From Candidatus Nomurabacteria bacterium (GTDB lineage: Bacteria; Patescibacteriota; Minisyncoccia; Phycocordibacterales; UBA918), in contig JACKGE010000001.1 of the NCBI GenBank assembly GCA_020632155.1, forward strand, positions 156,011-220,010: 64,000 bases of DNA, given 5' to 3'. This document shows, piece by piece, positions 19,029-60,041 of the stretch. The number at the start of each line of letters is the position of its first letter. The first letter of the stretch is position 1. The translations under genes and the position numbers were made by a program. The notes below the pieces were generated by a model. That model was not told where the DNA came from. It searched no databases and was given only the letters and a program-made list of their open reading frames with translations.

Positions 19029-19086
19029 GAAACTATATCTCAGTATACCTGAGGCACAGTAGCAGCGTTTCATGGGAAACCACTTT

Positions 19087-19234: not shown

Positions 19235-19333
19235 TTTGGGACGTATATTTGTATTTTATGTCCCGAAACGGGGATAACTGGGGAAAAGAACAGTTTGCCA
19301 CAGTATTGCGGCCATATTTGGTACAATAGTTGA

Positions 19334-36578: not shown

Positions 36579-36611
36579 ACACAAACCCCGCGCACAGCGC
36601 GGGGTTTGTGT
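36579..36611 (+). terminator. Perfect 14 bp-stem hairpin immediately after the pnp stop (acacaaaccccgcg caca gcgcggggtttgtgt)
   Basis: Exact inverted repeat; no T-tract, so it may be an RNase III/processing site or a weak terminator. Confidence 0.5.
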
Positions 36612-40667: not shown

Positions 40668-41681
40668 TTAAAATGGGTTGCTCGCGCCGCGGACCTCAAA
40701 GTGAAGGTGTGCCCCCGTCGACTTTCCAGTCATACCGACATACGCAATGGTCTCACCGGCCGCAACATAGGCACCAACACCAACGACATTAGAAGAAGTA
40801 TGAGCGTAAAGAGTTTGAGTGCCGTTTGGATGTTTGATGACCACATAGTTGCCGTACCCTCCATTCCAACCGGAAGATTTAGAAACAATGACCTCTCCTG
40901 CCGCAGCTGCGCGAATTGGAGTACCAACTGGTGCCGCTAGGTCAACTGCGTTGTAACCATGAATACCCTGAGTACGAACTGCTCCCGGTAGTGGGTGTGT
41001 GAAGTAACCGCCGCCGGCACTGCTACGAGTTGAACCACTAGCAGACGCTGCTACCTTGGTCGTAGTCTTTGGGGCCGCGGTGTGCATGTTACCGCCCGGA
41101 ATGATAAGGGTGGCACCAACAGTCAGTGAATCACTGGCAAGACGATTATATGAGCGAATCTCATCTGCATCTGCTTCGTACTTCTTGGCAACTGAGGCAA
41201 TGGTATCACCAGACTTAACAACATGTCGCACGCCAACAATCGGCAAAATGATGAGGGTATCGCCAGGCTGAACATTCTTTGGGTTACTAATGTCGTTGGC
41301 CCAGAGGATGGTGTTGGTGGTCACATCAAACATCTCCGCAATCTCTGAAAGGGAATCGCCTTCTCGAACAACGTACACGCTTATCTCACCCGACGTATCT
41401 TTAGACTCAACATCATCAGGGCCAAACGGGCCGCTTGGCAACAGCGCACCATCGTCGACAATGATATCGCCGCCGCCAAGTGCTGAGCTTGGATCTGGAT
41501 TATTGTGCGCAGAGAGTAGTTTAACGTCTGCGGCGCTCGGGGTACTGACAACAATTGGGTCAGCGGCCACTGCTTCTTCGCCAAAGATGCTAACGAGGGA
41601 GGTGAGTACCCCAGCATGCACGGAAAAGGGAATCAATACGACCAGAAGTAGTGGCATCACTTCAGCAAAAACCATGCGCAA
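40668..41681 (-). CDS. M23-family metallopeptidase with two LysM domains
   Basis: LysM repeats (YVVREGDSLSEIAEMF…; HVVKSGDTIASVAKKY…) and the M23 HxxxD/HxH region (…YGNYVVIKHPNGTQTLYAHTS…GAHLHFEV). Confidence 0.8.
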   Translation of the reverse strand: MRMVFAEVMPLLLVVLIPFSVHAGVLTSLVSIFGEEAVAADPIVVSTPSAADVKLLSAHNNPDPSSALGGGDIIVDDGALLPSGPFGPDDVESKDTSGEISVYVVREGDSLSEIAEMFDVTTNTILWANDISNPKNVQPGDTLIILPIVGVRHVVKSGDTIASVAKKYEADADEIRSYNRLASDSLTVGATLIIPGGNMHTAAPKTTTKVAASASGSTRSSAGGGYFTHPLPGAVRTQGIHGYNAVDLAAPVGTPIRAAAAGEVIVSKSSGWNGGYGNYVVIKHPNGTQTLYAHTSSNVVGVGAYVAAGETIAYVGMTGKSTGAHLHFEVRGASNPF

Positions 41682-44900: not shown

Positions 44901-45006
44901 TACCCTATCTTTCCACTCTTTGTACACAGACTGTACGTAGGTTAATCACAGGCCTGTTTACCGATACATATATTAGCTAGAGCTGACTGGTATACTGATA
45001 CTACCA

Positions 45007-45876
45007 ATGATTATGGGGGCCCAGAAAAGAATATTGCTGGCAGTCGTTTTTGCTGTGTGTGTAATAGGTGGTTCGTGGTGGCTATCACTCCACAGTCAGA
45101 ATGACACCCTCGGCGAACTTAACGCCGGTTCCGGAGACAGCTCAAACGTAACTTTGCCGGATGACCTTGATCTTAGTACCCTGATAAATACTAACTGGAG
45201 AGAGCATCTAGCTACTGCAAACTTGGCAACATCCTCCAGCAATAGCGCTCCTGAGACTATAACCGATCGCTACGCAGTAACGCTTCTTGAGCGCATCATG
45301 AATTCACATATGAATGGCGCCACGGAGGCACCTGTCTCTGACATCGTGCAGCAATCCCTCAGTGAATTAGAGCAAGCGGTAGCAGATGTACCGTTCACCA
45401 ACACAGACGTGCAAGTGACCAAGGACATCTCCCAAGCCAGCCTCAAACGGTATGGCAATGCCATCATGCAGATTACTCTCAACCATCCCTCACCATACGA
45501 AACAGCGGGCGATGAGCTCGACATTTTGACTAAGGCAGATGCAAGCGGCAATGCGGATGACTTACTGCCACTTCAAGACCATGTCGACTACATGAACAAC
45601 ATTATTCGCGATACAGCTGCGCTTGAGGTTCCAATCATCTACCTAGGTGATCAACTTGCTATTTTGAATGCTTATCAAGCACACTTAAACGACCTGCGGG
45701 CCATGCAGTCAGTATTTAATGACCCGCTATTAACAATTGCTCGACTGCGTTATTACGAAGAAAACAATGCTGCCATATATAATGCATATACTAATCTTTA
45801 TAATCGTATGTACTTAAATGGGGTGCGGTGGAACATATCTGATGTCGCCAGCCAATTCGTAGAAACACGAGAATGA
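45007..45876 (+). CDS. Hypothetical N-terminally anchored extracytoplasmic protein; first gene of the T4SS-like operon
   Basis: TM segment LLAVVFAVCVIGGSWW; the stop overlaps the next start (ATGA). Confidence 0.5.
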   Translation: MIMGAQKRILLAVVFAVCVIGGSWWLSLHSQNDTLGELNAGSGDSSNVTLPDDLDLSTLINTNWREHLATANLATSSSNSAPETITDRYAVTLLERIMNSHMNGATEAPVSDIVQQSLSELEQAVADVPFTNTDVQVTKDISQASLKRYGNAIMQITLNHPSPYETAGDELDILTKADASGNADDLLPLQDHVDYMNNIIRDTAALEVPIIYLGDQLAILNAYQAHLNDLRAMQSVFNDPLLTIARLRYYEENNAAIYNAYTNLYNRMYLNGVRWNISDVASQFVETRE

Positions 45877-47336
45877 TCATGTTACGTTTTCACAAAAAAT
45901 TAACAAGTCTACTACTGGTAACGCTGTTGGTGTACAGTGGGCTTTCGTTCTCTCCACACTCAGCTGAGGCAGTTGTGCAAGTGGATGTAAGGTCTACAAT
46001 CCTCAAAGGACCGGTAGATCAGATCAATTCAAATACCCAGAATATCTATCAACTTCTAAACAATATTTGGAAAAAGGAGTCTGTTGATGACCCCGCGGCT
46101 TGGAACCGTTCCAAAGATGCTGCTCGCCAACTAACCGGACGAATGCTTGTGCAGGTCGCTTCCGGCTTTGACGGCTCACCGACCTTTGTGGTGAATCTCT
46201 CAATCTTTATGCAAAAAGTGCAAGACCGAACTACCTACCAATTCATCCATAGTGACGATCTGGAAGGCATTAGTGATGCCTTTGAATTTCAGATCCGAGT
46301 GGCCGTTGCTGAGAGTTATGATAAACAACGTACCTATAAACCCAAGTCAACCATCGACGACCTGACTGGGAACCGCACACAGGACTTTTTTGCCGGCACC
46401 TACAATGAACCAAACTACCTACAGGTGTGGCTAGAGAGTACTGTTGGTGACCCATACAACGAACCCATACGAGCCGCTCTTGACGCTGAGGTACAAAGTG
46501 GCTTGCGCAACCTTGAGGTACTTAACACAGAGGTCAACAACAAACTGGATTGGAGTGAGGGGTACCTCACGATGCGCTGGTGTACCGAAACCCCGACCTC
46601 AACCGGCGGCGTGGAGCGTGACTGTTTTGACACGCAGCCTGGCTCGCTCGTCAAGCAGGGGGCGAATTACATTCTGGGTGAACTACCGGCCAGCATCTTG
46701 CTACAGGAGGATGAGATAAACGAAGGTATCAGTGAGACTTTCTCCGGTCTCAGTGCACAGATAATCGGCGGCGAGAACGGCCTTTTGGGCATTGGCTCCT
46801 CACCACTTAGTGTTAACACGTTTGGGACCGACGGCAGTTCATCGTATCTTGATGAACTTGTGGGACGCAGTGGTGGCACCGGACCGAGCACGTATTACAA
46901 CCCAATCGCTGAGTCACTTAAGGCTGAGATCGAGTTCGGCTCACTTCAGCAAGAGGTTCTTGATGAGGTGGAGCGAATTGAGGGACTCCTAGCAAGTAGT
47001 ACCGACCAGTATGGATACTGCTTTGCCATGACTCTTTCGAGCGATCTTGATGAGGCCAAGACTACAGCCGAAGACGCCCTTGATGCTTCCAAGACTGTAC
47101 GCCAGATACTCGAGCTTCTTAATGATGCGTTTCTCTCAGCGCCCGATCAGGCGAGTGCTGACCTAGTACTTGAACAATATAACCAACTAGATGATCAGGG
47201 GGTCTTTACTACCGAGATCGATAACGAAGAGTTTAAAAACTACTACCTCAACAGTGAGTTTAAGGCCATGGTCAATGAGTTTGAAAAGGGAATAGCCACG
47301 CAGCTTCTTAAATGTATTGACCAACCAACATCATGA
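45873..47336 (+). CDS. Hypothetical secreted protein (signal peptide), translationally coupled within the T4SS-like operon
   Basis: Signal peptide …LVYSGLSFSPHSAEA; overlaps both neighbours by 4 nt. Confidence 0.5.
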   Translation: MIMLRFHKKLTSLLLVTLLVYSGLSFSPHSAEAVVQVDVRSTILKGPVDQINSNTQNIYQLLNNIWKKESVDDPAAWNRSKDAARQLTGRMLVQVASGFDGSPTFVVNLSIFMQKVQDRTTYQFIHSDDLEGISDAFEFQIRVAVAESYDKQRTYKPKSTIDDLTGNRTQDFFAGTYNEPNYLQVWLESTVGDPYNEPIRAALDAEVQSGLRNLEVLNTEVNNKLDWSEGYLTMRWCTETPTSTGGVERDCFDTQPGSLVKQGANYILGELPASILLQEDEINEGISETFSGLSAQIIGGENGLLGIGSSPLSVNTFGTDGSSSYLDELVGRSGGTGPSTYYNPIAESLKAEIEFGSLQQEVLDEVERIEGLLASSTDQYGYCFAMTLSSDLDEAKTTAEDALDASKTVRQILELLNDAFLSAPDQASADLVLEQYNQLDDQGVFTTEIDNEEFKNYYLNSEFKAMVNEFEKGIATQLLKCIDQPTS

Positions 47337-49420
47337 TGTTTGCAAGACAAAAAGAGAGCAGGTTAGTGGCAACATTGTTAGTTGGACTGCTGTTTGCGTT
47401 TTTTGCCAGCGCCGTGGCACTCCCCGTTCACGCCCAAGGAGTTCCAAGTCCTGAGGGAGCAACGGCTGCAAAACAAACGGCAGATGGTCAGCCTGCACCC
47501 CAATCAGATGCACCCGAAGCGAGTAAAAGCGGTCCGATTCAAAAAGGTTCTGATGTGGCTAAAGACAAAAGTGCGCAGTATATCTACGACTTTTTTATCA
47601 TGATCGGCGGCGGGGCGGTGTGGCTTGGCGGCATGTTGCTTGACACCTCTATCGATGTCCTTGCTGTCAACATGGGAAAATTCGTACAGAACAATATGCT
47701 CTCTGCCATAAACGAGCTGTGGAAGGTCATTCGCGATATCTTTAATCTTCTCTTTATATTCGGTTTAATTTACATTGGCTTTCAAACCATTCTAGGAGAC
47801 GACACCAATATGCGGCGCGGCTTGGTAACACTTATTGCAGCAGCTCTGTTGATAAACTTCAGCCTCTTTTTCACTAAAGTGATTGTTGATTTTTCCAATG
47901 TGGCTGCGTATCAAGTGTATGAATTACTAGGTGGAGCCAATGCCACCTACCAAGCCACCAGTGAATCTGACCCCTTTAAAGGTATTGCTGCTGCGGTGAT
48001 GCTGCGCTCCCAGCTTAACTCCTATGCTAACCAACAGACAGATCAGGGCACAAAAAAACTTGAGTGGGGTCAGGCCGTCTTTTACGGCTTTATGGTGATG
48101 TGCATGATGTTAATGGCCGCGTTCGTCTTTTTGGCTGGTAGTTTTATGCTCATCAGCCGCTTTTTGGTGTTAGTGATAGGCATGATCCTATCTCCACTAC
48201 TTTTTCTCGGTATGGTCTTCCCACAGTTTTCGGGCACTAGCAAGGGCTGGTGGACAACCTTTCTCAAAAACGCCTTTGTAGCACCAGCCTATCTTTTTAT
48301 GGTTTACCTATCGCTGCGAGTCCTTGAAGGTATCAATGCCAGCGAAGCCATCTACGCTTCATTCACTGATGGTGGTGGTTTTACGGTTTTCATTACCTTC
48401 TGTCTGGTAATCGGCTTTTTATACGCGTCACTCCTAGTAGCCCAAAACATGGGAGGGAAGGGTGCCAAGATGGCCATCGGTGCCGCTCACTCAGTGCGTA
48501 AACAAGTACAAACCGCGGCTGGTAACGTTGTACTAGGGGGCACGGCTAAAGGTTTGCGCGCTACTGTTGGAAGAGCCGCCTACAATAGGGCTAATGACGA
48601 GAGTCTAAAAGACAAAGCGGCCAATAGCTGGATTGCGAGACAAAGACTCAAAACAGCGACTATGCTTAGCGGCAGTAGTCTTGATGCACGTCAGGTTGGT
48701 GGTGTTGGTAAGAGACTTGGTATTGGTACGGGTAGAAAGGGTGGCTTTTCTGGCGAGCAGGAAAAGGTCACTAAGGCAGAGAAGGGATTTGCCGATCGTC
48801 TTGGTACAGTTGATGATAAGGACGCATCAGTTGCCTACTTAAAAGATAGAATTGGTGACACAGAGGAGGCTATAAAGCTAACAAAAATCAACCTAGCAGC
48901 AGCTTCTAAACCTGAGGACAAACGTCGCTACGCTGCTGAGCGCGATCAGCTTGAAGAAGAGCTTAAGAAACGTCAGTCTGACTACAAAAAAGAAAAAGGT
49001 CGTCGCCAAAGTGGTAGCGTAGTTGATGGTACTAAGGTCGCTGAACAGAGACAAAAAGAGGAGCCTATCCGAACTCAGATCGTTACCTTGCGAGAGGCAC
49101 GTCAAGTAGCTGTCAGTAGCGGTAACGCTGAAAGAGTAGCAGACATTGATAACCAGCTCTTAGAACAACATAAACGACTAGAAACCATGCAAGCTAGTTT
49201 TGTACAAGAAGAAGCAAAAGGTGGTTACGGTAATGTGGTACAGAATCGGGGCAGACTTACATCTTGGATCACTGGGCGGGAGCGTGTTAAAAACAGAAAT
49301 GCTGGAGAAGAAATACTTAAGGCAGCTGGAAAAAAGGTTAAACAAACCAAAGATGACGAACATTTCCAGAGTCTTCGTGATGATCTTGGTAAACTTAACA
49401 ACGATAAAGATAATGCCTAA
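47333..49420 (+). CDS. VirB6/TrbL-like polytopic membrane protein: signal peptide, at least 6 TM, long charged coiled-coil C-terminal tail
   Basis: Topology typical of T4SS VirB6/TrbL inner-membrane channel proteins; assignment by architecture and context only. Confidence 0.45.
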   Translation: MMFARQKESRLVATLLVGLLFAFFASAVALPVHAQGVPSPEGATAAKQTADGQPAPQSDAPEASKSGPIQKGSDVAKDKSAQYIYDFFIMIGGGAVWLGGMLLDTSIDVLAVNMGKFVQNNMLSAINELWKVIRDIFNLLFIFGLIYIGFQTILGDDTNMRRGLVTLIAAALLINFSLFFTKVIVDFSNVAAYQVYELLGGANATYQATSESDPFKGIAAAVMLRSQLNSYANQQTDQGTKKLEWGQAVFYGFMVMCMMLMAAFVFLAGSFMLISRFLVLVIGMILSPLLFLGMVFPQFSGTSKGWWTTFLKNAFVAPAYLFMVYLSLRVLEGINASEAIYASFTDGGGFTVFITFCLVIGFLYASLLVAQNMGGKGAKMAIGAAHSVRKQVQTAAGNVVLGGTAKGLRATVGRAAYNRANDESLKDKAANSWIARQRLKTATMLSGSSLDARQVGGVGKRLGIGTGRKGGFSGEQEKVTKAEKGFADRLGTVDDKDASVAYLKDRIGDTEEAIKLTKINLAAASKPEDKRRYAAERDQLEEELKKRQSDYKKEKGRRQSGSVVDGTKVAEQRQKEEPIRTQIVTLREARQVAVSSGNAERVADIDNQLLEQHKRLETMQASFVQEEAKGGYGNVVQNRGRLTSWITGRERVKNRNAGEEILKAAGKKVKQTKDDEHFQSLRDDLGKLNNDKDNA

Positions 49421-49422
49421 CT

Positions 49423-49995
49423 ATGAATGACATGCTACCAGATCAGAAACGAACGCTTCAGAAAAGCTTCCTTGAAGCCCCAGAACGAGTCAAGGAATTA
49501 CTCCTCGGCAGGGTCTTTGATCGAGTATTTAGCGACATAGGTTCAAAATACCGACTTGACACCAAACAACGTAAATTAGCAGAAAATGATGCGACATTGG
49601 TACTCTTAGCCTTCCTGCCGCGTCAAGGTATGTCACAGCGACTGGCTGAAGAGCTGGGGGTGAGTAAAGATGTTGCTGAGGGTATCTTCAAGGACCTTAA
49701 CGATAAGCTGTTTGCACTAGTGGTGGACATTCTTTCAGAAGTCGAAACCGAGTTGTTTACATTCGACCCAGCAGATATGGCTCTGGACGATGAGACCCCT
49801 AACACAAATACGAGTCCTGTCGAGCGTATGCGCACTATGGAAGGAGACCTTAAACGTATCCATGGGTATGGTTCATTTGGTGAACTCTATGGTACCGGAG
49901 ACGATGAAGTACATCACTCTAGCCAAGAGGAGCTGGTGAAAAAACCGAGTCTCACCGACTTACCGCGCTACAACCCGAATACTCCAAACGAGTGA
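49423..49995 (+). CDS. Hypothetical cytoplasmic protein within the T4SS-like cluster
   Basis: Clean ORF 3 nt after the preceding stop. Confidence 0.45.
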   Translation: MNDMLPDQKRTLQKSFLEAPERVKELLLGRVFDRVFSDIGSKYRLDTKQRKLAENDATLVLLAFLPRQGMSQRLAEELGVSKDVAEGIFKDLNDKLFALVVDILSEVETELFTFDPADMALDDETPNTNTSPVERMRTMEGDLKRIHGYGSFGELYGTGDDEVHHSSQEELVKKPSLTDLPRYNPNTPNE

Positions 49996-50051
49996 CTCCA
50001 TTACCTGACTTATCAACGTCCGTCTCACTCAAGATGGCGTATAATTGAGGT

Positions 50052-50462
50052 ATGAGATTTGAAGTACCGCAATTCATTGAGATTGAAGATAAAATATTTG
50101 GCCCCTTTACATGGCGCCAATTCATCTATATCGGGGGTGGCGCTGGTATCGCTACAGTCTTGTTCTTTGTAGCACCTTTTTTCATCTTTGTGCTCTTTGG
50201 ACTACCAATCGCTGGACTGACGTTCTTACTCGGTTTCTATCCGATTAATAACCAGCCATTTTCAATCTTTCTTGAGTCGATGGTTGGGTATTTTCGAAAT
50301 AGTCGACTTTACCTGTGGCGAAAATCAGGTACTGGTGTCTATGGTCAAGACGAGGACGAGGCGCAAAGCAGTCAAAGCTATTCAGTACCTACCTCAGGTA
50401 GCAACCTTACCTCACTGTCCCGCAAGCTGGAACTAAAAGCCATTCAGCGCCAAAGTAATTGA
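50052..50462 (+). CDS. PrgI/VirB3-like small T4SS membrane protein
   Basis: The N-terminal IEIEDKIFGPFTWRQFIYIGGG motif followed by two TM helices, as in the PrgI family of Gram-positive conjugation systems. Confidence 0.55.
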   Translation: MRFEVPQFIEIEDKIFGPFTWRQFIYIGGGAGIATVLFFVAPFFIFVLFGLPIAGLTFLLGFYPINNQPFSIFLESMVGYFRNSRLYLWRKSGTGVYGQDEDEAQSSQSYSVPTSGSNLTSLSRKLELKAIQRQSN

Positions 50463-51091
50463 TTATGTCAAACAAACAAGCTTCAACTCAGAACTTCGTA
50501 CCAGTCCGTGATATCAAAGATAACGTGGCAATTTTAAAAAATGGTCAGCTCAACATGGTGCTCTTGGCCTCATCAGTAAACTTCGCTCTTAAATCACTCG
50601 ACGAACAGGCAGCCATATTGGCACAATTCCAGTCATTTTTAAATACACTTGATTTTTCAGTGCAATTCTACGTGCAGTCACGGAAACTCAATATCAAACC
50701 CTATATAGAAAAATTACGAGCTCGCGAATCAGAACAGTACAACGACCTCATGTCTATTCAGTTACGTGAGTATATTCAGTTTGTGCAGGCATTTACCAGT
50801 GAGGTGAATATCATGAGTAAGAATTTTTTCGTTGTTGTCCCTTATACACCGGTAGCTGCTAATCTACAGTCGGGCATTCCTGATTTTTTTGGAAAGAAAA
50901 AAACCTACTTTGACGATAAAAATTTTGCTGAGCATAAATCACAGCTAGAGCAGCGCGTACTCTTAGTTGAGCAAGGTCTCAGCCGAATCGGTGTACGAAG
51001 TATCGTGCTTGAAAGCGAGGAGCTGGTAGAATTGTTCTATCATACCTTCAACCCAGGGGACATCGAGGGTGAAGCACCAAATAGTAAATGA
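50459..51091 (+). CDS. Hypothetical T4SS-associated protein resembling the VirB4/TrbE N-terminal domain
   Basis: VAILKNGQLNMVLLASSVNF…FLNTLDFSVQFYVQSRK resembles the TrbE/VirB4 N-domain pattern; the stop lies 1 nt before the VirB4 ATG (TGAtATG). Confidence 0.35.
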   Translation: MIMSNKQASTQNFVPVRDIKDNVAILKNGQLNMVLLASSVNFALKSLDEQAAILAQFQSFLNTLDFSVQFYVQSRKLNIKPYIEKLRARESEQYNDLMSIQLREYIQFVQAFTSEVNIMSKNFFVVVPYTPVAANLQSGIPDFFGKKKTYFDDKNFAEHKSQLEQRVLLVEQGLSRIGVRSIVLESEELVELFYHTFNPGDIEGEAPNSK

Positions 51092-51092
51092 T

Positions 51093-52907
51093 ATGGGTTT
51101 GTTTGATCTCATAAAAAAGAATACCGGGCCAGAAACAACTACCCCGAAGACACTCAACACCGAAACAGCTTTGATGACTCTTGAGGATGTAGTGGCTCCA
51201 TCAGCTGTAAATGTTCAACCACGGAGTATCAATATCAGTGGTACTAATGCCCGTGTATTCTTTGCAGTTTCGTACCCGCGCTACCTCAATGATGGTTGGC
51301 TTGAACCGATCCTCAATCTCGAACGGGAAATGGACATCAGTATCATGATCCACCCGATTGATACTGCGGAGACCTTAAAGAAATTCCAAAAGAAAGTAGC
51401 CGAGGTGCAAAGCCAGATTAATATCCGCGCTGAACAAGGTTTAGTACGTGATCCGCAACTCGAAGCTGCCTACCGCAACCTTGAGGACCTGCGCGATAAA
51501 CTGATGCAAGCAGAGGAAAAGCTTTTCAATACCGGTCTTTATATTGCTATCTATGGAACTGATGAAGCTGAGCTCAATAAGACTGAAGCAGAAATCAAAG
51601 GAATTCTTGATTCCCGTCTGGTGTATATAAAACCCGCGCTCTTTCAGCAAGAGCAGGGGTTTAAGAGCATCATCCCAACCATGACCGACGAGCTGTTGGT
51701 CCATAGCAAGTTCAACTCCTCTCCGCTTTCTAGCTTTTTCCCATTTACGTCATTTGATCTTACCTCTGACAACGGGATTCTCTACGGCATAAACCGCCAT
51801 AACTCTTCTCTCATTCTCTTTGATCGTTTCCAACTAACAAACTACAACTCTGTGACCTTCGCCACATCAGGTGCTGGAAAGTCATACACAACAAAGTTGG
51901 AAATCTTACGCTCACTTATGTTCGGCGCTGAGGTTATTGTCATCGACCCTGAGCGTGAGTATGAGTACCTCGCGGAGGCCACGGGTGGCCGATTCTTCAA
52001 CATTTCACTCTCGTCCTCACACCACATCAACCCATTTGACCTACCATTGCCGCAAAAAGACGAGAGTCCTGAAGATGTACTACGCTCACATATCATTGAG
52101 CTTATTGGCCTCTTCCGGCTTATGCTTGGTGGCCTTGCGCCGGAAGAAGAGACCGTCATCGATCAAGCACTCCATGAAGTGTACGCCCTGAAGGATATCA
52201 GCGGTGACGTGGATTTCTCGCAGCTTGAGCCGCCACTCCTCACAGACTTTGAAATGGTACTGGCCGGTATGGAAGGCAGTGCCTCGCTTATCTCGCGTCT
52301 GCAAAAATACACCTCTGGTACGTGGTCAGGCTTTATGAATCAGCCAACTAACGTAGATGTGAACCAAAAGTTCGTGGTCTTCTCTCTTCGCGATATGGAG
52401 GATGAACTGAAGACCATCGCCATGTACATCATTACCAACCACATTTGGAGCGCTATCCGTAGGCGCCTCCAGAAGCGCCTCCTTGTTATCGACGAGGCGT
52501 GGTGGATGATGAAGTCTGAAGACACCGCCTCCTTCCTCTTTTCTCTTGCTAAGCGCGGCCGCAAATACTACCTTGGTCTTTCTACTATCACCCAAGACGT
52601 AAGTGACTTCTTGCGTTCGCCATACGGGGTACCAATGATCACCAACTCTTCATTGCAGCTACTCATGAAACAGTCACCTACCTCTATTGATACCATCCAG
52701 CAAACCTTTAATCTCACTGATGAAGAAAAAATGCTCCTTCTCGAGTCGAGTGTGGGGGAGGGAATCTTCTTTGCGGGCCTCAAGCACGTAGCCATCAAGG
52801 TCATTGCCTCATACACTGAAGACCAGATTATCACCTCTGATCCATCGCAGATATTACAAATAAGAAATGCCCGCGCAGAACTAGAAGCTGCTGAGGGTAG
52901 CGCTTAG
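51093..52907 (+). CDS. virB4: VirB4/TrbE/PrgJ-family T4SS ATPase
   Basis: Walker A FATSGAGKSYTTK, Walker B LLVIDEAWWM, and the C-terminal VirB4 motifs. Confidence 0.8.
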   Translation: MGLFDLIKKNTGPETTTPKTLNTETALMTLEDVVAPSAVNVQPRSINISGTNARVFFAVSYPRYLNDGWLEPILNLEREMDISIMIHPIDTAETLKKFQKKVAEVQSQINIRAEQGLVRDPQLEAAYRNLEDLRDKLMQAEEKLFNTGLYIAIYGTDEAELNKTEAEIKGILDSRLVYIKPALFQQEQGFKSIIPTMTDELLVHSKFNSSPLSSFFPFTSFDLTSDNGILYGINRHNSSLILFDRFQLTNYNSVTFATSGAGKSYTTKLEILRSLMFGAEVIVIDPEREYEYLAEATGGRFFNISLSSSHHINPFDLPLPQKDESPEDVLRSHIIELIGLFRLMLGGLAPEEETVIDQALHEVYALKDISGDVDFSQLEPPLLTDFEMVLAGMEGSASLISRLQKYTSGTWSGFMNQPTNVDVNQKFVVFSLRDMEDELKTIAMYIITNHIWSAIRRRLQKRLLVIDEAWWMMKSEDTASFLFSLAKRGRKYYLGLSTITQDVSDFLRSPYGVPMITNSSLQLLMKQSPTSIDTIQQTFNLTDEEKMLLLESSVGEGIFFAGLKHVAIKVIASYTEDQIITSDPSQILQIRNARAELEAAEGSA

Positions 52908-52910
52908 GCT

Positions 52911-53576
52911 ATGGTCGTTCAAGCTGCAGCGGCCGCGGGCGTGCGAGTGGCGGCCAAGAAGGCGGCCACAAAAACTGCGACTAGGAACACCTCACGGATG
53001 ACACCGGGGATACATAACGCTAAAATTGTTACTCGTCGTACGGTGGACCGTAACACGGCCCTCACTCAACAACGTGCTCGAACCCCAAATGCAGCAAGTC
53101 ATCGTCGTAATCGCTTTACTAACGCAGGCGAACAATCCAAAACGCATGGGAGTGAGTCGGCTCCACTATCAGCGATAGCTGAAGGACGACGCGAGTTTGC
53201 TTTTTTCATCGGCAATATGGTTGCGTGGCCATTGGCCGCACCCCAATTGGTTATGGGGGTACTCACTATCATATCTCTTGTGGCGTGGATAGGAGCTGAA
53301 GAATTGTCGTGGGGACTGTCTGACTACATATTGCCAACTGACATTATATTTACTATCAACTGGGGAGCAGCGATAGTACTTGGCCTATTGTCATTAGCTG
53401 GAGTAACGTTTATTCTTCTTTTAGTCGGGAAAATACCCATTTTTAGCAGGTTTAGTCGTCTGTTTTTACTTGTTATATTTATGGCGCTCACTATATTCCC
53501 AATGACCTCATTTATTCCTTTTGGACTTATCTTCCTGTGGATTATCCGACTAACCCACCACCGAAAAAACTCGTAA
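52911..53576 (+). CDS. Hypothetical 4-TM membrane protein with an Arg/Lys-rich N-terminus; part of the T4SS-like cluster
   Basis: Basic N-terminal 90 aa followed by four hydrophobic helices. Confidence 0.45.
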   Translation: MVVQAAAAAGVRVAAKKAATKTATRNTSRMTPGIHNAKIVTRRTVDRNTALTQQRARTPNAASHRRNRFTNAGEQSKTHGSESAPLSAIAEGRREFAFFIGNMVAWPLAAPQLVMGVLTIISLVAWIGAEELSWGLSDYILPTDIIFTINWGAAIVLGLLSLAGVTFILLLVGKIPIFSRFSRLFLLVIFMALTIFPMTSFIPFGLIFLWIIRLTHHRKNS

Positions 53577-53615
53577 CGAAGCGATATGCTATCCTAAAGA
53601 GACCAATAGGATTCC

Positions 53616-54317
53616 ATGTTAAGGATTATAACAATACTGATGGGAGGGGTGCTTTTGGCAGGGTACACCACACCTGCATTGGCACAAATAACTAATGATT
53701 CCCTTCATATCTACTTTGAACCACAAACGATCACACCCGATCTCTATTTTGGCCGTAGTGAAGCGACAGTCGGTAGTACCGTGCGAGCCGTAGCAATAAT
53801 TAATGGTGAGAATGATCCTTCGGAGCATTACTATCGTTGGCACGCTGGCGCAGAGAATATTGGAGCCGGCATTGCCAAAGGACAAAATACCGTAGACATC
53901 CCGTTGTTGTTTAGTGACGAATCGATAATCAGTGTGGATGTGTACGACAAAGACCTTACGTTGCTAGCTACCGCTTCTGAGTTCCTCGAACTCAGCGAAC
54001 CAGAAGTGCATTTTTATGAAGACAATCCATTGCGTGGCATGTCCACAACCGCCATGGGTGACTCATACATACTGACCGGCAACGAAATCAGGGTCCGTGC
54101 AATACCATATTTTATGTCAAAGGATATTTTGACAAACAATCCAAAACTCGTTTGGAGTCTTGACCGCCAGACCACAAAAAATATAAATGGTGACCCTCTA
54201 CTTTTGACCTTAGAAGCCCCCGAAGGAAAAAGCGGAAAGACGTTAGTTGAGTTTTATCTGCATAACACCAAGAATTTATTGCAATCGGTTTCAGAAAAGG
54301 TGCTTATCTCTTTTTAG
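53616..54317 (+). CDS. Hypothetical secreted protein (signal peptide) in the T4SS-like cluster
   Basis: Signal peptide MLRIITILMGGVLLAGYTTPALA. Confidence 0.45.
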   Translation: MLRIITILMGGVLLAGYTTPALAQITNDSLHIYFEPQTITPDLYFGRSEATVGSTVRAVAIINGENDPSEHYYRWHAGAENIGAGIAKGQNTVDIPLLFSDESIISVDVYDKDLTLLATASEFLELSEPEVHFYEDNPLRGMSTTAMGDSYILTGNEIRVRAIPYFMSKDILTNNPKLVWSLDRQTTKNINGDPLLLTLEAPEGKSGKTLVEFYLHNTKNLLQSVSEKVLISF

Positions 54318-54318
54318 T

Positions 54319-55473
54319 ATGAACAAAACACTCTTTATCAGCATACTTGGTACCATAACACTTTTGGTTTTAGGTCTATGGTTTTACCTTATATTCAATG
54401 GGACACCTGAATCAACAAGTGATATCTTCACTAACTTTAGCCTCGGTGGAAACAGCCCTGAACGACCAGCAGTAATTACCGAGAAGTCGAACGATCCAAG
54501 TACTGTCGTTGATACCAGCAGCCACACACTCAACCAACTCACCACTAAATCGGTAGCAGGCTATGTAGCTATAAACAGCACTTCGAGTAGTATGGTACGC
54601 TACGCCGAACGAGGCACTGGCTATATATTTGATATTGATCTAGGAACTGGACAGGAAGAGCGGCGTTCTGGTACTACCTTTACACGAATAACACAGGCCA
54701 CCTTCTCACCATCTGGAAACTGGGTGCTGCTGCAGAGTGATACTGATACTGAGCTAGTGTACCTAACTGCTAGTAGTACATACGGTACAGCCGAAACTAT
54801 TACAGAAAAAGTAGAAAATGTCAGCTTCACTGACACAGCGCTATACTACACCGTTCGTACCTCAGACAGCACTGTTGGAATTCGACGTGACTTGGTAAGT
54901 GGTGCACAGACTGAGATATTTTCTACTCCCCTGACTGAAATTGACGTTGTGTGGTCTGGTGATTCAGCATATTTCTTTAATCGACCATCAGCGCTGATGC
55001 GCGGCAGTGTGTATAGATTGTCAGGCAGTACCCATAGTCTTCTTTTTGGTCCAGAGTACGGTTTGTTCGCCACGCAGCTAACCGCCGCCACGTGGCTGGT
55101 AAGCACTATTGATACAGAAAAACAAACATACCAGACCATAGTCTTAGATGAAGCAAACAATAGCCAGCAACTAATAGCAATAATGGGTCTGCCCGGTAAA
55201 TGTGATTACAGTGAAAACCATGGTCTATGGTGCCTTGGATCGCTGGACTTAGAACCAAGACCTGACGCTGTACACGATTGGTTTGTTGGCGCTGCCGATA
55301 GCAGCGATCTCATTTGGTCAGTTGATATGGAGACTGGTGAAGCCACCTTGTCAGAAGACCCGTACGAAACACTTGGATACACGTTAGATGGTCAAGCGGC
55401 CACTATAAAGGGTACTAGGTTTTTCTTTATCAACCGCACCAATAGTTCTCTCTGGAGCTATGACCTAGAATAA
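54319..55473 (+). CDS. Hypothetical N-terminally anchored extracellular protein (about 385 aa) in the T4SS-like cluster
   Basis: Start chosen at MNKTLF, 1 nt after the upstream stop; TM anchor then a Ser/Thr-rich, beta-rich domain. Confidence 0.45.
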   Translation: MNKTLFISILGTITLLVLGLWFYLIFNGTPESTSDIFTNFSLGGNSPERPAVITEKSNDPSTVVDTSSHTLNQLTTKSVAGYVAINSTSSSMVRYAERGTGYIFDIDLGTGQEERRSGTTFTRITQATFSPSGNWVLLQSDTDTELVYLTASSTYGTAETITEKVENVSFTDTALYYTVRTSDSTVGIRRDLVSGAQTEIFSTPLTEIDVVWSGDSAYFFNRPSALMRGSVYRLSGSTHSLLFGPEYGLFATQLTAATWLVSTIDTEKQTYQTIVLDEANNSQQLIAIMGLPGKCDYSENHGLWCLGSLDLEPRPDAVHDWFVGAADSSDLIWSVDMETGEATLSEDPYETLGYTLDGQAATIKGTRFFFINRTNSSLWSYDLE

Positions 55474-55477
55474 CTGC

Positions 55478-56278
55478 ATGGTGTTAGTGTCTCGTATAGA
55501 AAAAAGCTGGAGTACCTTCAAAGTAGCTTTTTTTATTCTAAGCTTGTTAGTAATACCACTGCTAGGTCAAGCTGCTGGCCCCAGCACCCTCGTTGATATA
55601 CCACAGGTAAATAGTGCCAACGGTATTAATGGATATATTGAAGCGCTCTATACACTAGCTATCACTGCAGCTTCCCTCATTGCTATTATTCAACTCATCA
55701 AGGCTGGTTCAAAATATGTCTTTTCAGCGGTGGTGACTGACAAAGGTGAAGCAAAAAAAGATATCCGTAATGCTCTGATCGGCCTCTTGATCATCATTGG
55801 TGCGGTCACCATTTTAAATGAGATCAATCCGCAGTTGACCAACTTGAATATACTCGGTAACGCTACGCAACTAACAAATCCGGGAGGGAGTAATGTGCCT
55901 GATCTTTCTATCCCCGACTACTTAAAACCTTCATCAAATCAGAATTTGAGTTTGATAAAGTGTTCTGGGCAAAAAAATGATGTCGGGGAATTAGATTGTA
56001 GTGCGGCGATACAGAAATGTCTGAACCAAAATGGTACCACTAGAAATAACAAGGTTATGAGTGGCAATTTGTTATGTTACACAAATGTACAAACGTGTAA
56101 CGGTTACTACGATCAGCAGACAAAGACTTGTTATGATAATACTGTTGGCCTTGGGGAGGAATTTTCACAAGAGGGTGAAAATATTAGACAACAAGAATGC
56201 CTGCGTGTAACCCAATCACAAGGAGAATATATAAATGGCGTTTGTTACAGACGTGCTAATACGGGACAAGGCCTGTAA
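55478..56278 (+). CDS. VirB2/TrbC-like pilin-domain protein (signal peptide plus two hydrophobic helices) fused to a 10-Cys C-terminal domain; paralog A
   Basis: Helix-loop-helix pilin-like core (LYTLAITAASLIAIIQLIKAGSKYVF…ALIGLLIIIGAVTIL); C-terminal CSGQKNDVGELDCSAAIQKCLNQ…. Confidence 0.5.
   Translation: MVLVSRIEKSWSTFKVAFFILSLLVIPLLGQAAGPSTLVDIPQVNSANGINGYIEALYTLAITAASLIAIIQLIKAGSKYVFSAVVTDKGEAKKDIRNALIGLLIIIGAVTILNEINPQLTNLNILGNATQLTNPGGSNVPDLSIPDYLKPSSNQNLSLIKCSGQKNDVGELDCSAAIQKCLNQNGTTRNNKVMSGNLLCYTNVQTCNGYYDQQTKTCYDNTVGLGEEFSQEGENIRQQECLRVTQSQGEYINGVCYRRANTGQGL
55575..55900 (+). repeat. 326 bp direct repeat copy 1 (100% identical to 56446-56771), covering the pilin-like core of paralog A
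   Basis: Exact nucleotide identity found by direct comparison. Confidence 0.9.
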
Positions 56279-56339
56279 TAAATGTGGGCTGTCAACATAA
56301 ACAGATCCTGCTTTAAGGGTTATGGCCTAGAATAAAGGC

Positions 56340-57053
56340 ATGAAATGCTCAATACATAAGGGGGTCGGCTGGTTTCTAGTGTTTTGCTACAGCAGTCTCT
56401 TTATTTTTTTCTTTTTGCCCACCTTTGCTTTAGCGGCAACAGGTTCTGGCCCCAGCACCCTCGTTGATATACCACAGGTAAATAGTGCCAACGGTATTAA
56501 TGGATATATTGAAGCGCTCTATACACTAGCTATCACTGCAGCTTCCCTCATTGCTATTATTCAACTCATCAAGGCTGGTTCAAAATATGTCTTTTCAGCG
56601 GTGGTGACTGACAAAGGTGAAGCAAAAAAAGATATCCGTAATGCTCTGATCGGCCTCTTGATCATCATTGGTGCGGTCACCATTTTAAATGAGATCAATC
56701 CGCAGTTGACCAACTTGAATATACTCGGTAACGCTACGCAACTAACAAATCCGGGAGGGAGTAATGTGCCTATTGCCGAAGTGGGTGGAAGCGCTAACGT
56801 TAATGACATAACTAGCGAACAGCGCGCCAAGTGGGTTCAGGAATGTGAACGAAAAGGAGGTAAGGTTGAACTTCATGGAACTTTAGGACAAGGAGGAACG
56901 ACTATACACTGTAATGAAGAGTCAACAGGGCGCCCAACGCTAATGGACCCACTTCCGGTTAACTACACAGCAGCGCAATTAGCTGAGTATACAAAAAAGT
57001 GCATTACAGAATTACAGGGTGTAATGCACAATAACACTTGTGTTTCCAGGTAA
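56340..57053 (+). CDS. VirB2/TrbC-like pilin-domain protein fused to a different 5-Cys C-terminal domain; paralog B
   Basis: Identical pilin-like core; distinct signal peptide and C-terminal domain (…CERKGGKVELHGTLGQGGTTIHCNEE…). Confidence 0.5.
   Translation: MKCSIHKGVGWFLVFCYSSLFIFFFLPTFALAATGSGPSTLVDIPQVNSANGINGYIEALYTLAITAASLIAIIQLIKAGSKYVFSAVVTDKGEAKKDIRNALIGLLIIIGAVTILNEINPQLTNLNILGNATQLTNPGGSNVPIAEVGGSANVNDITSEQRAKWVQECERKGGKVELHGTLGQGGTTIHCNEESTGRPTLMDPLPVNYTAAQLAEYTKKCITELQGVMHNNTCVSR
56446..56771 (+). repeat. 326 bp direct repeat copy 2
   Basis: Identical to 55575-55900. Confidence 0.9.
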
Positions 57054-57074
57054 TAAAACCCTCTTTGGTTTACG

Positions 57075-57803
57075 TTACCGGTGCCTGCGAACAAGATACT
57101 CTTGCACAAGGGCCATCAGGTTTGAGATAGTAAAGTAGATAGCAATGGCCGCTGAAATGGTGTACGCCACCATGAAGATGATAAGCGGCATCATGTAGCG
57201 CATCTGAAGCTGCATGCTGCGCGCAAAGTCAGCTTTCATGTCGAGCACCTCATCCTTTTTTCGCGGCTCGGGTTTTGGAATGGAAAGCTGGGCGTGAATA
57301 AACTGGGTAATACCGGCCAGTAGCGCGAGGGGCAGACTTTTTTGGGTAATATCCATAAAGCCAAGAAAAATCATATTGACCGTTTCCGGTGTCGGCACAA
57401 AGGCGTAGAGTACTGCCGTGTTTATCTCCGGCAGCGGAACACCGCCGCCGCGGGCTACCGAGAAATAGAGCGCAATAATAATCGGTATTTGCACAAAGAG
57501 CAGGATGACACTTGCAAACGGATTAAGGCCAGCGTCACGATAGACCTCCATCATTTCACGCGCCTGCTCTTCACGCTTATCTTTAAGGCGTTCTTTGATC
57601 TCTTTGAGCTTCGGGTCAAGCTCTTTCATTATCTTTTGGGTGCGAGCGGCCTTAAGGGAGAGCGGGAGGAGGAATACCTTGACCACAATGGTAGTTAAAA
57701 TAATAGAGAGACCTACATCACCCCCCGGTACCACATCAATGAAGTACACAAGAATGTTATAGATGGGGTCAAAAAAGAATAAGTGCCAAATAGTGCTCCA
57801 CAT
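57075..57803 (-). CDS. yidC: Membrane protein insertase YidC (short Gram-positive/Oxa1-like form)
   Basis: 5-TM YidC core; canonical position downstream of rnpA. Confidence 0.8.
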   Translation of the reverse strand: MWSTIWHLFFFDPIYNILVYFIDVVPGGDVGLSIILTTIVVKVFLLPLSLKAARTQKIMKELDPKLKEIKERLKDKREEQAREMMEVYRDAGLNPFASVILLFVQIPIIIALYFSVARGGGVPLPEINTAVLYAFVPTPETVNMIFLGFMDITQKSLPLALLAGITQFIHAQLSIPKPEPRKKDEVLDMKADFARSMQLQMRYMMPLIIFMVAYTISAAIAIYFTISNLMALVQEYLVRRHR

Positions 57804-57820
57804 ACGTACGAAATCCTAAG

Positions 57821-58144
57821 CTAGGATAATTTAGTGAGAAGACTGGTAAGTTCGTCGCGCACCGCTTGATACGGAGCGTTTTTTGCGGTCGGTTTCACCA
57901 AGACAATATATACTCCTTTGGCTGATTTGGCCACTTTTTGGGCATAGAGGATGCCATAGAGACGGCGGCGCATGCGATTGCGGTCATGTGCTTTAGAAAA
58001 TACCTTTTTACCAACTACCACCGCGCCGTGGAACTCGTCACTTGGGTTATAGATGATGCCTACATACTGCCCATGTAGGCGGCGGCCAGTCTGGTAATAG
58101 TGATCAAATTCTTTAGTTGTGAGGCGTTGTTGTTTCTGTAACAT
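57821..58144 (-). CDS. rnpA: Ribonuclease P protein component
   Basis: VGKKVFSKAHDRNRMRRRL matches the RnpA RNR motif. Confidence 0.85.
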   Translation of the reverse strand: MLQKQQRLTTKEFDHYYQTGRRLHGQYVGIIYNPSDEFHGAVVVGKKVFSKAHDRNRMRRRLYGILYAQKVAKSAKGVYIVLVKPTAKNAPYQAVRDELTSLLTKLS

Positions 58145-58176
58145 ACTGATTGTAGTGTTATGTACTACTATACCAA

Positions 58177-58222
58177 CAAAAAAGCGCTGTCTCTAAGAAG
58201 GGGAGACAGCGCTTTTTTGTCT
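58177..58222 (-). terminator. Hairpin between rpmH and rnpA (gcgctgtctc…gagacagcgc flanked by A and T runs); attenuator-like
   Basis: 10 bp stem plus T-run on the minus strand. Confidence 0.55.
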
Positions 58223-58333
58223 TTAGCGGCTCTTCTTGACCGCAAGTGACGCGCGGCCTTTGCGGCGGCGGCTACGGAGAACAGCCACACCACTTTTGGT
58301 CTTGGTACGAGCCAAGAAACCATGGGTGGTCAT
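58223..58333 (-). CDS. rpmH: 50S ribosomal protein L34 (36 aa; [36 protein letters not shown]); not in the ORF track
   Basis: Sequence and position upstream of rnpA. Confidence 0.85.
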
Positions 58334-58472
58334 GCGCTTTTTCTGAGAGGGTTGATATGTTCGTTTTGGCATTGCGCGAAACTATACCGCAGCAATTACA
58401 AAAAAGCAACAGTGAGCTATATGGTCACATCACAAAGACATACAGTTTTTTGACGAACACGGGCTTTTATTG

Positions 58473-58575: not shown

Positions 58576-58598
58576 GCTTGGTACGTTTGTTAATTCAG

Positions 58599-59993
58599 AT
58601 GTCAGTCATTTCTATGAATCCGATCTCACAATCCACCCCAAGCAGCATTGTGCACACCGAGCATATTGATGTGAAGAAATTGTGGGACGACGCACTGGTT
58701 AACATTGAACTCTCCATCACACCAGCCAACTTCAAGACTTGGTTTCGTGACACTCACATTGTGTCACTTGAAGATGGAACCGTAACCTTAGGTGTACCAA
58801 GTGTCTTTGTGCGTGATTGGCTCCAAGACAAATTCCAATCAATGGTCCTTAAGGTGCTACGCGAACTCACACCACATATTCGTAGCATCGAGTACGCAGT
58901 GGTACAGCGCAGTGACAAGCGCCATGAGACCAAATCACAAACAGTTAATGCCGCGCTGCCACTTGAGGAGTACTACATAAACAAAAGTGACAACCTCAAT
59001 CCAAAATACGTGTTTGAAACCTTTGTAGTGGGGCCATTTAACGCCCTTGCGCACGCTGCCGCCAAGACCGTGAGTGAACGACCGGGTATTACCTACAACC
59101 CACTCTTTATTTACGGCAAGACCGGTCATGGTAAGACCCACCTCATTCAGGCGGTAGGAAATCACCTTAAACGCGGCGGTAAAAAGGTGTTTTATGTGAC
59201 CAGTGAGCGCTTTACTGTCGACTACTTCAACTCCCTCCAGAATGGGACTGCGAACAACTTCAAAGACAAGTACCGACAGTACGATGTTCTTATCATGGAC
59301 GACGTGCAATTCCTTGCCAATAAAGAAAAGACGCAGGAGGAACTATTCCATTTGTTTAATGCCCTCCATGACAACAACAAGCAGATCGTGTTCTCAAGTG
59401 ATGTACACCCGTCACTACTCTCTGGACTTGAGGAGCGTCTGCTCTCACGCTTCTCACAAGGAATGATTGTTGATATTCCTGCACCTGATACCGAGTCTCG
59501 GGTAGCTATATTGAAGGCCAAGGCAGCACAAAACAGCATCAGTCTCTCAGAAGAGGTGGTTGAACATCTTGCCAACACTATTGAGGGTAATATCCGTGAA
59601 CTCGAGGGAGCGCTCAACACCATCATGTGCCAATCACAGCTTATGGGGCGTACCCTTTCGCTTGATGAGGTGAAGCTCATCATTAAAAACAGCACTCGGC
59701 CGCGTAAGACCTTAGCAGTGTCAGATGTGGTTGATAAGGTGGCTCGTTATTTTGATGTTGAACCAAGTAGTATCTATGAAAAAACGAGGCGCAAAGAGGT
59801 AGTGAAGCCGCGCCAACTCATTATGTATATCCTACGTGAAGATTTTTCAGTTTCTTACCCAGCCATTGGACAAAAGCTTGGTGGTCGAGACCACACCACT
59901 GTCATTCACTCGTGTGAAAAGATAAAGAATGAACTGAAAGGAAACAGTGAACTTGAAGAAGAAATAGGGCAGCTACGTATGTTGCTGAAGTAG
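58599..59993 (+). CDS. dnaA: Chromosomal replication initiator DnaA
   Basis: AAA+ motifs (GKTGHGKTHLIQAVGN… DDVQFL…) and the C-terminal DNA-binding domain; the first ATG lies downstream of the TATAAT; the ORF track used a TTG at 58578. Confidence 0.9.
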   Translation: MSVISMNPISQSTPSSIVHTEHIDVKKLWDDALVNIELSITPANFKTWFRDTHIVSLEDGTVTLGVPSVFVRDWLQDKFQSMVLKVLRELTPHIRSIEYAVVQRSDKRHETKSQTVNAALPLEEYYINKSDNLNPKYVFETFVVGPFNALAHAAAKTVSERPGITYNPLFIYGKTGHGKTHLIQAVGNHLKRGGKKVFYVTSERFTVDYFNSLQNGTANNFKDKYRQYDVLIMDDVQFLANKEKTQEELFHLFNALHDNNKQIVFSSDVHPSLLSGLEERLLSRFSQGMIVDIPAPDTESRVAILKAKAAQNSISLSEEVVEHLANTIEGNIRELEGALNTIMCQSQLMGRTLSLDEVKLIIKNSTRPRKTLAVSDVVDKVARYFDVEPSSIYEKTRRKEVVKPRQLIMYILREDFSVSYPAIGQKLGGRDHTTVIHSCEKIKNELKGNSELEEEIGQLRMLLK

Positions 59994-60004
59994 TGTTCTC
60001 CGGT

Positions 60005-60037
60005 ACACAAAAGCCCCACACTCTGGGGCTTTTGTGT
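60005..60037 (+). terminator. Terminator after dnaA
   Basis: acacaaaagcccc acactct ggggcttttgtgt. Confidence 0.7.
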
Positions 60038-60041
60038 ACCG

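Follow-up and report, generated by a model that had tools for sequence, protein, structure and literature searches.

What does a gene cluster resembling a conjugation machine do beside dnaA, on the chromosome of a bacterium with a reduced genome? We asked this of positions 45007-57053 in a 64,000-nucleotide stretch of DNA from Candidatus Nomurabacteria bacterium (contig JACKGE010000001.1; the whole stretch is called the window below), where a conjugation-like type IV secretion system (T4SS) had been predicted from the letters alone. We consider it likely that the cluster is the T4SS of Patescibacteria in its Paceibacteria form, that is, a monoderm-type VirB6/VirB3 translocon powered by VirB4, which would assemble VirB2-like pilins into a surface structure with variable domains and would mediate an essential interaction with a host cell, by protein export or by uptake of host material, rather than conjugation. 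The organism is an ultra-small, host-dependent, Kaiserbacteria-like member of Paceibacteria; the named best matches were all from Paceibacteria, Kaiserbacteria or Nomurabacteria. Patescibacteria, which live on other microbes, account for a large part of bacterial diversity, and few of their machines besides the T4SS are known to be essential to this way of life.

Gene content and the secretion motor

The cluster consists of 12 tightly packed open reading frames (ORFs) on the plus strand, with junctions ranging from a 4-nt overlap to a 61-nt gap, which bears out the original prediction of 12 co-oriented, mostly coupled genes. We corrected the starts of three of them: g6 (ATG at 50465, giving 208 aa), g7 (ATG at 51093, 604 aa) and g10 (ATG at 54319, 384 aa). 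These starts agree with how the genes are called on JAGQLX010000011.1, a near-identical contig at NCBI, and with them each of the three opens 1-2 nt past the preceding stop codon. Scans for promoters and terminators gave results at chance level. The genes, all on the plus strand, are as follows (TM, transmembrane).

g1, 45007..45876, +, 289 aa; one N-terminal membrane or signal helix and an acidic extracytoplasmic part (hydropathy)
g2, 45873..47336, +, 487 aa; secreted or anchored, predicted all-helical; fast-evolving family with conserved cysteines
g3, 47333..49420, +, VirB6/TrbL-like polytopic membrane protein; signal helix, at least four further TM helices, charged cytoplasmic tail of ~300 aa
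g4, 49423..49995, +, 190 aa, cytoplasmic; helical N-domain, disordered linker, short conserved C-terminal motif
g5, 50052..50462, +, PrgI/VirB3-like small membrane protein
g6, 50465..51091, +, TrsD/TraC-like; free-standing N-terminal domain of long monoderm VirB4 ATPases
g7, 51093..52907, +, VirB4 ATPase; Walker A GAGKS, Walker B VIDEAW
g8, 52911..53576, +, 221 aa; basic N-terminal region, 3-4 TM helices (hydropathy)
g9, 53616..54317, +, secreted; immunoglobulin (Ig)-like repeats, two in the window copy
g10, 54319..55473, +, membrane-anchored TolB-like beta-propeller; N-terminal TM helix
g11, 55478..56278, +, VirB2/TrbC-like pilin; signal peptide, two TM helices, 148-aa C-terminal domain with 8 cysteines
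g12, 56340..57053, +, second pilin; g11-type core, different 116-aa C-terminal domain with 4 cysteines

Profile searches identified the parts of a secretion motor. The product of g7 matched the NCBIfam model of the VirB4-like CD1110 family (1.5e-108; 364 bits, cut-off 325), the NCBIfam VirB4 model of the Mycoplasma integrative conjugative element (ICE), Mbov_0397 (8e-81), and Pfam P-loop_TraG (3.6e-25). Its best solved relative was the C-terminal domain of Thermoanaerobacter VirB4 (PDB 4AG5, 2e-48), followed by TrwK of R388 (1e-4). It shares 83-90% identity with thousands of proteins from Paceibacteria. It is 82-91% identical to the 120 VirB4 matches listed, whose named organisms are nearly all Patescibacteria (Paceibacterota, Kaiserbacteria or similar), and 28-34% identical to the closest VirB4 proteins of a plasmid database, which come from Bacillota and Actinomycetota. 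The product of g6 matched positions 99-278 of the 894-residue Mycoplasma ICE VirB4 model (1.2e-10) and positions 2-114 of the CD1110 model, as well as the TrsD/TraD family (6e-5; NCBIfam), and g7 covers the remainder of both VirB4 models. Because the two proteins match complementary parts of the same models, g6 and g7 are a split VirB4 made of a TrsD/TraC-like N-domain protein and an ATPase, as in pGO1 and pIP501. It was the fold, together with NCBIfam models of longer VirB4s, that linked g6 to VirB4; comparison of the g6 family with the VirB4 family by hhalign did not reveal the relation (probability 0.1), and PDB sequence-profile searches with g6 and g3 returned nothing useful.

To place the remaining proteins we also used the corresponding loci of 80 species-representative genomes, chosen by VirB4 similarity. 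The small protein encoded by g5 matched Pfam PrgI (E=4.5e-10; 40.4 bits, cut-off 27) and had an orthologue in 79 of the 80 loci, at 33-68% identity. The window copy of g3 matched Pfam TrbL at E=0.0036, below the Pfam cut-off, and an NCBIfam model of CD3337/EF1877 mobilome membrane proteins at 1.3e-4; among its 42 orthologues, TrbL was the sole recurrent family, matched by 11 (best 2e-8). These family-level matches identify g3 as a VirB6/TrbL-like channel protein. Thus the family calls of the original prediction (VirB6/TrbL-like, PrgI/VirB3-like, VirB4, two pilins, and several signal-peptide and anchor proteins) all survived profile searches, the first of them and the pilins through their orthologues.

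Of the six accessory envelope proteins, we can give a first-pass description of four: the Ig-repeat protein g9, the TolB-like g10, the helical g2 and the cytoplasmic g4. The g9 profile matched the Ig-like domains of phage T4 Hoc (E=5e-6). Two such repeats are found in the window and in L001-L003 and three in most other relatives, an alignment indicating that the N-terminal repeat was lost. With the g10 profile, some 12 TolB structures were matched, at E-values from 2e-6 to 1.5e-5. An exhaustive HMMER search collected 1352 representatives of the g2 family, of which a word-indexed homologue search had returned only g2 itself; g2 is 100% identical to a protein of 'Candidatus Kaiserbacteria bacterium', and discoidin or Ig domains have been added in a few orthologues. 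Its predicted structure is all-helical with a very confident C-terminal bundle, for which fold searches found no specific structural relative. No TM helix was predicted for g4, which had no Pfam or NCBIfam match, and its domain layout comes from an alignment of 38 positional orthologues. Searches of Pfam, NCBIfam and PDB sequences with g1 gave no match; its positional orthologue was present in 24 loci at 21-31% identity, with TSP3 repeats in some. PDB sequence profiles returned nothing useful for g1 or for two alignments of g2. Finally, an ORF with 2-5 TM helices stands in the position of g8, after VirB4, in 44 loci, where it is not detectable by BLAST.

Together, these assignments suggest how the apparatus might work. 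The motor (g5, g6 with g7, and g3) would assemble a channel across a single membrane and the wall and, by polymerising both VirB2-like pilins, would build a surface fibre with the constant pilin core as its filament and the variable, cysteine-rich C-terminal domains facing outward. Through this apparatus the reduced-genome bacterium would contact the host cell it depends on, and would export proteins or take up host material; it would not conjugate DNA. Composition, homology, synteny and conservation are what the analysis shows, while the existence of a pilus, the way transport runs and what is transported are inferred.

Chromosomal neighbourhood and the question of DNA transfer

If the cluster were a mobile element, its surroundings should differ between relatives. 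We found that it ends 21 nt before the convergent yidC gene, as the original prediction of a cluster running directly up to yidC-rnpA-rpmH and dnaA-dnaN implied. The genes on that side are the following.

yidC, 57075-57803, -
rnpA, 57821-58144, -
rpmH, 58223-58372, -
dnaA, 58578-59993, +
dnaN, 60342-61436, +

A 51-aa ORF at 58168-58323 was considered for rpmH and rejected as being in the wrong frame; the true rpmH overlaps it in another frame. On the other side lie ksgA, then a UvrD/PcrA helicase gene about 1 kb upstream of the cluster and comM about 4.5 kb upstream. The other sizeable ORFs of the window are housekeeping genes, including those for trigger factor, ClpP, RNase Y, BipA, PNPase, ComM, UvrD/PcrA, KsgA and a class A penicillin-binding protein (PBP).

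In the 80 relatives, the order uvrD-ksgA-[g1 g2 g3 g4 g5 g6 g7 g8 g9 g10/pilin]-yidC-rnpA-dnaA-dnaN-PBP was seen wherever the fetched DNA spans the flanks (it reached yidC in 65 loci, dnaA in 61 and ksgA in 46), on chromosomal contigs of up to 474 kb. This synteny indicates that the cluster is ancestral, chromosomal and vertically inherited. VirB4 is 67-86% identical across the 80 relatives. In the more distant half of the loci, median identity to the window was 69% for VirB4, 52% for g6 and 40% for PrgI, compared with 58% for DnaA, 53% for UvrD, 43% for YidC and 39% for DnaN; for g1, g2, g3, g9 and g10 it was 24-27%, and for surface components overall 20-35%. In loci selected through it, VirB4 is thus the most conserved protein of the neighbourhood, and the surface proteins evolve fast, a two-speed pattern of a very strongly conserved motor and rapidly diverging surface parts.

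These data bear on whether the cluster is the decaying remnant of an integrated conjugative element. Such a remnant might lack relaxase and coupling genes, as this cluster does, and the loss of one Ig-like repeat from g9 could be read as decay. However, all 12 ORFs are intact and tightly coupled, gene order and VirB4 sequence have been kept in 80 species, the GC content of the cluster (0.44-0.49) equals that of its flanks, and no tRNA, integrase, att-like repeats or long flanking repeats were found at its borders. Synteny and conservation effectively refute this explanation, and we rejected it. The original prediction of a conserved chromosomal neighbourhood rather than a mobile element agrees with this: none of the 80 relatives carries the cluster on a plasmid or ICE backbone, and in all of them it is chromosomal, in the setting that runs from ksgA to yidC-rnpA-dnaA-dnaN.

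We then searched the whole 64 kb for genes of DNA transfer. Among the window ORFs of at least 100 aa that were judged to be genes, we found no relaxase of any family, no coupling protein of the VirD4 or TcpA type and no transposase. The only tyrosine recombinase in the window is XerC/D-like (31693-32616, minus strand) and lies 12 kb away amid housekeeping genes. What the original prediction had noted for the cluster, that no relaxase or VirD4 coupling protein is visible, thus holds for these ORFs across the entire window.

The cluster could still be a functional apparatus for conjugation or mobilisation if the genes for its relaxase and coupling protein lie in another part of the genome. The machinery does derive from monoderm conjugation systems, and most Patescibacteria encode homologues of the type IV coupling protein (T4CP) at sites remote from virB4 (Quinonero-Coronel et al. 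2025, Microb Genom, PMC12102498). In the same survey, however, just 103 of 3,035 genomes had a relaxase, and in Southlakia the T4CP is not essential whereas the T4SS is. A fixed chromosomal site in 80 species, with purifying selection on VirB4 at least as strong as that on DnaA, is also unlike a mobile element. We therefore regard conjugation as improbable.

Uptake of DNA or other nucleic acid deserves somewhat more weight, although we think it unlikely too. A machine of this kind would resemble ComB of Helicobacter, which has neither relaxase nor T4CP, like the window cluster as far as the window extends, or the archaeal Ced system, and could feed a cell that is unable to make nucleotides. 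VirB4 partially matched CedB (2.4e-9) and CedD (1.5e-3), but these matches are limited to the generic ATPase core. Similarly, comM and uvrD lie close upstream, and the T4SS of class ABY1 adjoins comF, recG and radA (PMC12102498), but comM and uvrD are ordinary housekeeping genes found in the same order in relatives. In Southlakia, loss of comEC ends competence and not viability, while the T4SS is essential (PMC12857230), which argues that the essential role of the T4SS is not ComEC-dependent DNA uptake. The hydrolase, binding or cysteine-rich outward domains of the pilins, described below, point to surface interaction instead.

A host-interaction or surface-organelle role, which the original prediction had favoured over DNA transfer, is thus supported, and three publications reach the same conclusion (PMC12102498; Wang et al. 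2023, Cell, PMC10633639; PMC12857230). Several points nevertheless weigh against our interpretation. Essentiality of the T4SS has been shown by experiment in Saccharimonadia only and not in any Paceibacteria. No pilus has been seen, the pilus itself being deduced, and the C-terminal domains of the pilins could be retained or not after export. A gene for a coupling protein may lie outside the window, since in the 2025 survey most Patescibacteria have T4CP homologues, as a rule at a distance from virB4. The conservation rank of VirB4 is mildly inflated because the loci were picked by VirB4 similarity. Two expected parts were also not recognised. A VirB8-like protein was not recognised when VirB8, PrgL and TraM were sought with the sequence profiles of g1, g2, g9 and g10; structure-based tests took in g2 and g6, and the g2 model is all-helical and does not have the NTF2-like fold of VirB8. 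A VirB1-like hydrolase was not recognised by Pfam or NCBIfam among the 12 cluster genes.

On both parts the literature offers some context. VirB8 is almost never found in Patescibacteria and rarely outside class ABY1, and VirB1-like proteins with M23 or LysM domains occur near virB4 in Paceibacteria (PMC12102498). In the window, Pfam identified one such gene 3.3 kb upstream of the cluster:

40668..41681, -, LysM-LysM-M23 peptidoglycan hydrolase, on the strand opposite to the cluster

A LysM-M23 gene was present upstream of uvrD in all 10 loci that reach that far, and in the related Pontibacillus cluster described below an M23 hydrolase gene directly follows VirB4. It is possible that this hydrolase is the VirB1 analogue, its membership in the system being uncertain.

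The order rpmH-rnpA-yidC / dnaA-dnaN is the classical neighbourhood of a replication origin, and the cluster had been described as adjacent to the origin. The gene neighbourhood fits this description, but strict adjacency was not demonstrated: a scan of the window found no enrichment of DnaA-box consensus sites near dnaA, and GC skew over the 64 kb was inconclusive, placing no origin at dnaA and having its cumulative minimum at ~20.9 kb (20938). We identified two places where oriC might lie. The spacer between dnaA and dnaN (59994-60341) holds four sites resembling TGTGTATAC, two of them exact copies of a kind that the window has nowhere else, one near-consensus DnaA box (TAATCCACA) and, behind dnaA, a hairpin terminator. 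This spacer could be an oriC whose DnaA boxes have diverged; the enrichment of TGTGTATAC, a motif chosen post hoc, is only suggestive. The alternative candidate is an AT-rich intergenic spacer at 19074-19333, with two DnaA-box-like sites (TTATCCACT) 20 nt apart and the palindrome ATATGTTTCACGTGAAACATAT, which lies at a switch in gene orientation and near the cumulative skew minimum. Under either reading the cluster is origin-proximal, at 3 kb or ~26 kb.

Some observations concern the wider surroundings. In locus L038 (CALFYW010000016.1), g1-g4 are missing upstream of PrgI/TrsD/VirB4, and pnp, a gene for a 664-aa protein and comM abut the core, which indicates that the upstream module is separable from the motor. 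The window also encodes a 664-aa protein (36608-38602), between PNPase and a DksA/TraR zinc-finger gene, in a neighbourhood that recurs in L038; it has no Pfam match. Its long N-part, rich in proline and glutamate, is probably disordered, a single TM helix lies near residue 440, and the C-terminal domain spans ~200 aa. At 13017-15135 on the minus strand, a gene for an ECF-type sigma factor (14491-15135) overlaps one for a 504-aa DUF5667 protein (13017-14531), and the two are probably a sigma/anti-sigma pair.

Pilins with shared cores and variable C-terminal domains

The two pilins of the window matched Pfam T4SS_pilin weakly (E~0.004 each). Among the pilin orthologues, 40 of 44 matched it, the best at 4.7e-10, and this result upholds the original call of two pilin-like proteins; there is also a weak NCBIfam match to the pilin-like protein of Mycoplasma ICE, Mbov_0395. 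A conserved INP motif marks the end of the second pilin helix, and 46 of the 54 pilin ORFs in related loci extend at least 60 residues beyond it (median ~155). At least 4 cysteines are present in 37 of these 46, and the extensions are mostly unrelated from genome to genome. In one orthologue (L062:12882-13979) the C-terminal extension is an SLT_2 lytic transglycosylase domain, and others carry NlpC/P60 or TIG. As SLT_2, NlpC/P60 and TIG are wall-degrading or binding modules, their presence fits an outward-facing, host-directed role.

Within the window, g11 and g12 share 326 nt at 100% identity, whereas their signal peptides and C-terminal domains are unrelated. The shared segments form a direct repeat:

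copy 1, 55575..55900, +, core of pilin g11
copy 2, 56446..56771, +, core of pilin g12

We found the same arrangement, identical cores (326-758 nt) followed by completely different sequence, in four of the five genomes with two pilin genes. Apart from the window, these are L009, L011 and L076, with 388-758 nt at 100% and unrelated C-terminal domains; the pattern was not seen in L004, which also has two pilin genes. The identical cores of the three are:

L009, 14799-15222 and 15889-16312
L011, 12432-12819 and 14534-14921
L076, 13267-14024 and 16420-17177

One further contig suggests what such repeats might do. JAGQLX010000011.1 (L081) is 99.96-100% identical to window positions 44998-55900 and 56446-58147 and lacks exactly one 871-bp repeat unit, so that it encodes a single chimeric pilin of 234 aa with the front of g11 and the C-terminal domain of g12. 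This shorter form reflects either real recombination between the repeats or a collapse made by the assembler. A search of the rest of the window for silent pilin cassettes detected none.

On this basis we tentatively propose, as an idea somewhat short of even odds, that the pilin of Kaiserbacteria-like Paceibacteria is a modular carrier. A constant polymerisation core, kept identical by gene conversion or repeated duplication, would be fused to interchangeable, hypervariable, disulfide-rich C-terminal 'payload' domains, and recombination between cores would add or remove payloads; two pilins in the window and one chimera on the near-identical contig would then be the two sides of such an event. 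If true, this would be a way to vary the host specificity of a T4SS fibre that is undescribed for conjugative-type pili, and a pilin that joins an identical core to variable outward domains hints at a means of altering host recognition. Should the observation hold, it would also provide an experimental handle on which domain binds what on the host, and we consider it the part of this work that merits follow-up.

Comparison with known systems

The system descends from monoderm conjugation machinery of the MPF-FATA type. Its monoderm relatives (pGO1 and pIP501 with TrsD and TrsE, the Clostridioides CD1110 family, and the Mycoplasma ICE with Mbov_0395/0397) have in common with the window the VirB4 family, a separate TrsD-type protein and PrgI. 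They differ in being borne on plasmids or ICEs, in having a relaxase and a coupling protein and in transferring DNA, and their VirB4 proteins are just 28-34% identical to g7. The best annotated among the top plasmid-database matches to VirB4 is a cluster on the Pontibacillus sp. ALD_SL1 megaplasmid (NZ_CP062975.1; L082, 351-361 kb). As in the window, a g6 homologue (27%, E=2e-25) directly precedes VirB4 (34%), and the pilin-like genes number two, with 30-34% identity to the g11/g12 core. A 1050-aa M23 hydrolase is encoded directly after VirB4. The annotation shows no relaxase and no T4CP within 12 kb, and the replicon is classed as non-mobilizable. This cluster differs in belonging to a Bacillota genome, beside flagellar genes, and in having short pilins (~145-150 aa); counterparts of g1, g2, g9 and g10 were not detected in it. 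It indicates that pilin-bearing, relaxase-less relatives of the machinery also exist outside Patescibacteria.

Within Patescibacteria, the experimental reference is Southlakia epibionticum, in which the T4SS, including its pilins, is essential for epibiotic growth by transposon sequencing (PMC10633639). Its cluster (SEML1_0006-0019) resembles that of the window in being a Gram-positive-like T4SS with in-cluster pilin genes and without a recognisable relaxase or coupling protein, and its low locus numbers suggest a position near the genome start, as likewise proposed for the window cluster. Southlakia belongs to the class Saccharimonadia and has six sequence-divergent pilins, in contrast to the two core-identical pilins of the window, and it encodes peptidase and lysozyme homologues directly downstream of virB4, whereas the window cluster has none inside. 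A 2025 review presents the Patescibacteria systems as a new T4SS subgroup and speculates that the pilus is a conduit for signals or uptake (PMC12857230). Paceibacteria that parasitise methanogens express few genes as highly as those of their T4SS pilins (PMC10936435).

The closest comparison is with the Paceibacteria system of the 2025 survey (PMC12102498), which describes a monophyletic Patescibacteria VirB4 clade nested in MPF-FATA, with TrsD, PrgI/VirB3, VirB6 and VirB2-like pilins near virB4, and lists dnaA, dnaN, rnpA, ksgA and rpmH as neighbours of the Paceibacteria T4SS. The window cluster shares with it the MPF-FATA-affine VirB4, the adjoining TrsD-like gene, PrgI/VirB3, the VirB6-like protein, the VirB2-like pilins, the lack of a relaxase and all five of these neighbours, and nothing essential sets the two apart. 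The kind of system, the missing DNA-transfer genes and the position at dnaA were thus already described between 2023 and 2025, and the original finding is correct but mostly not new. The window provides a clean, complete example of the Paceibacteria form of the T4SS with a split VirB4, not a new kind of system. What goes beyond the survey lies in the four accessory proteins described here for the first time (g9, g10, g2 and g4) and in the pilins: most of those in Kaiserbacteria-like genomes carry long, cysteine-rich C-terminal domains, extensions of which we found no mention in that paper, and the paralogues of the window have cores that are 100% identical, compared with at most 54% identity within the pilin arrays reported there.

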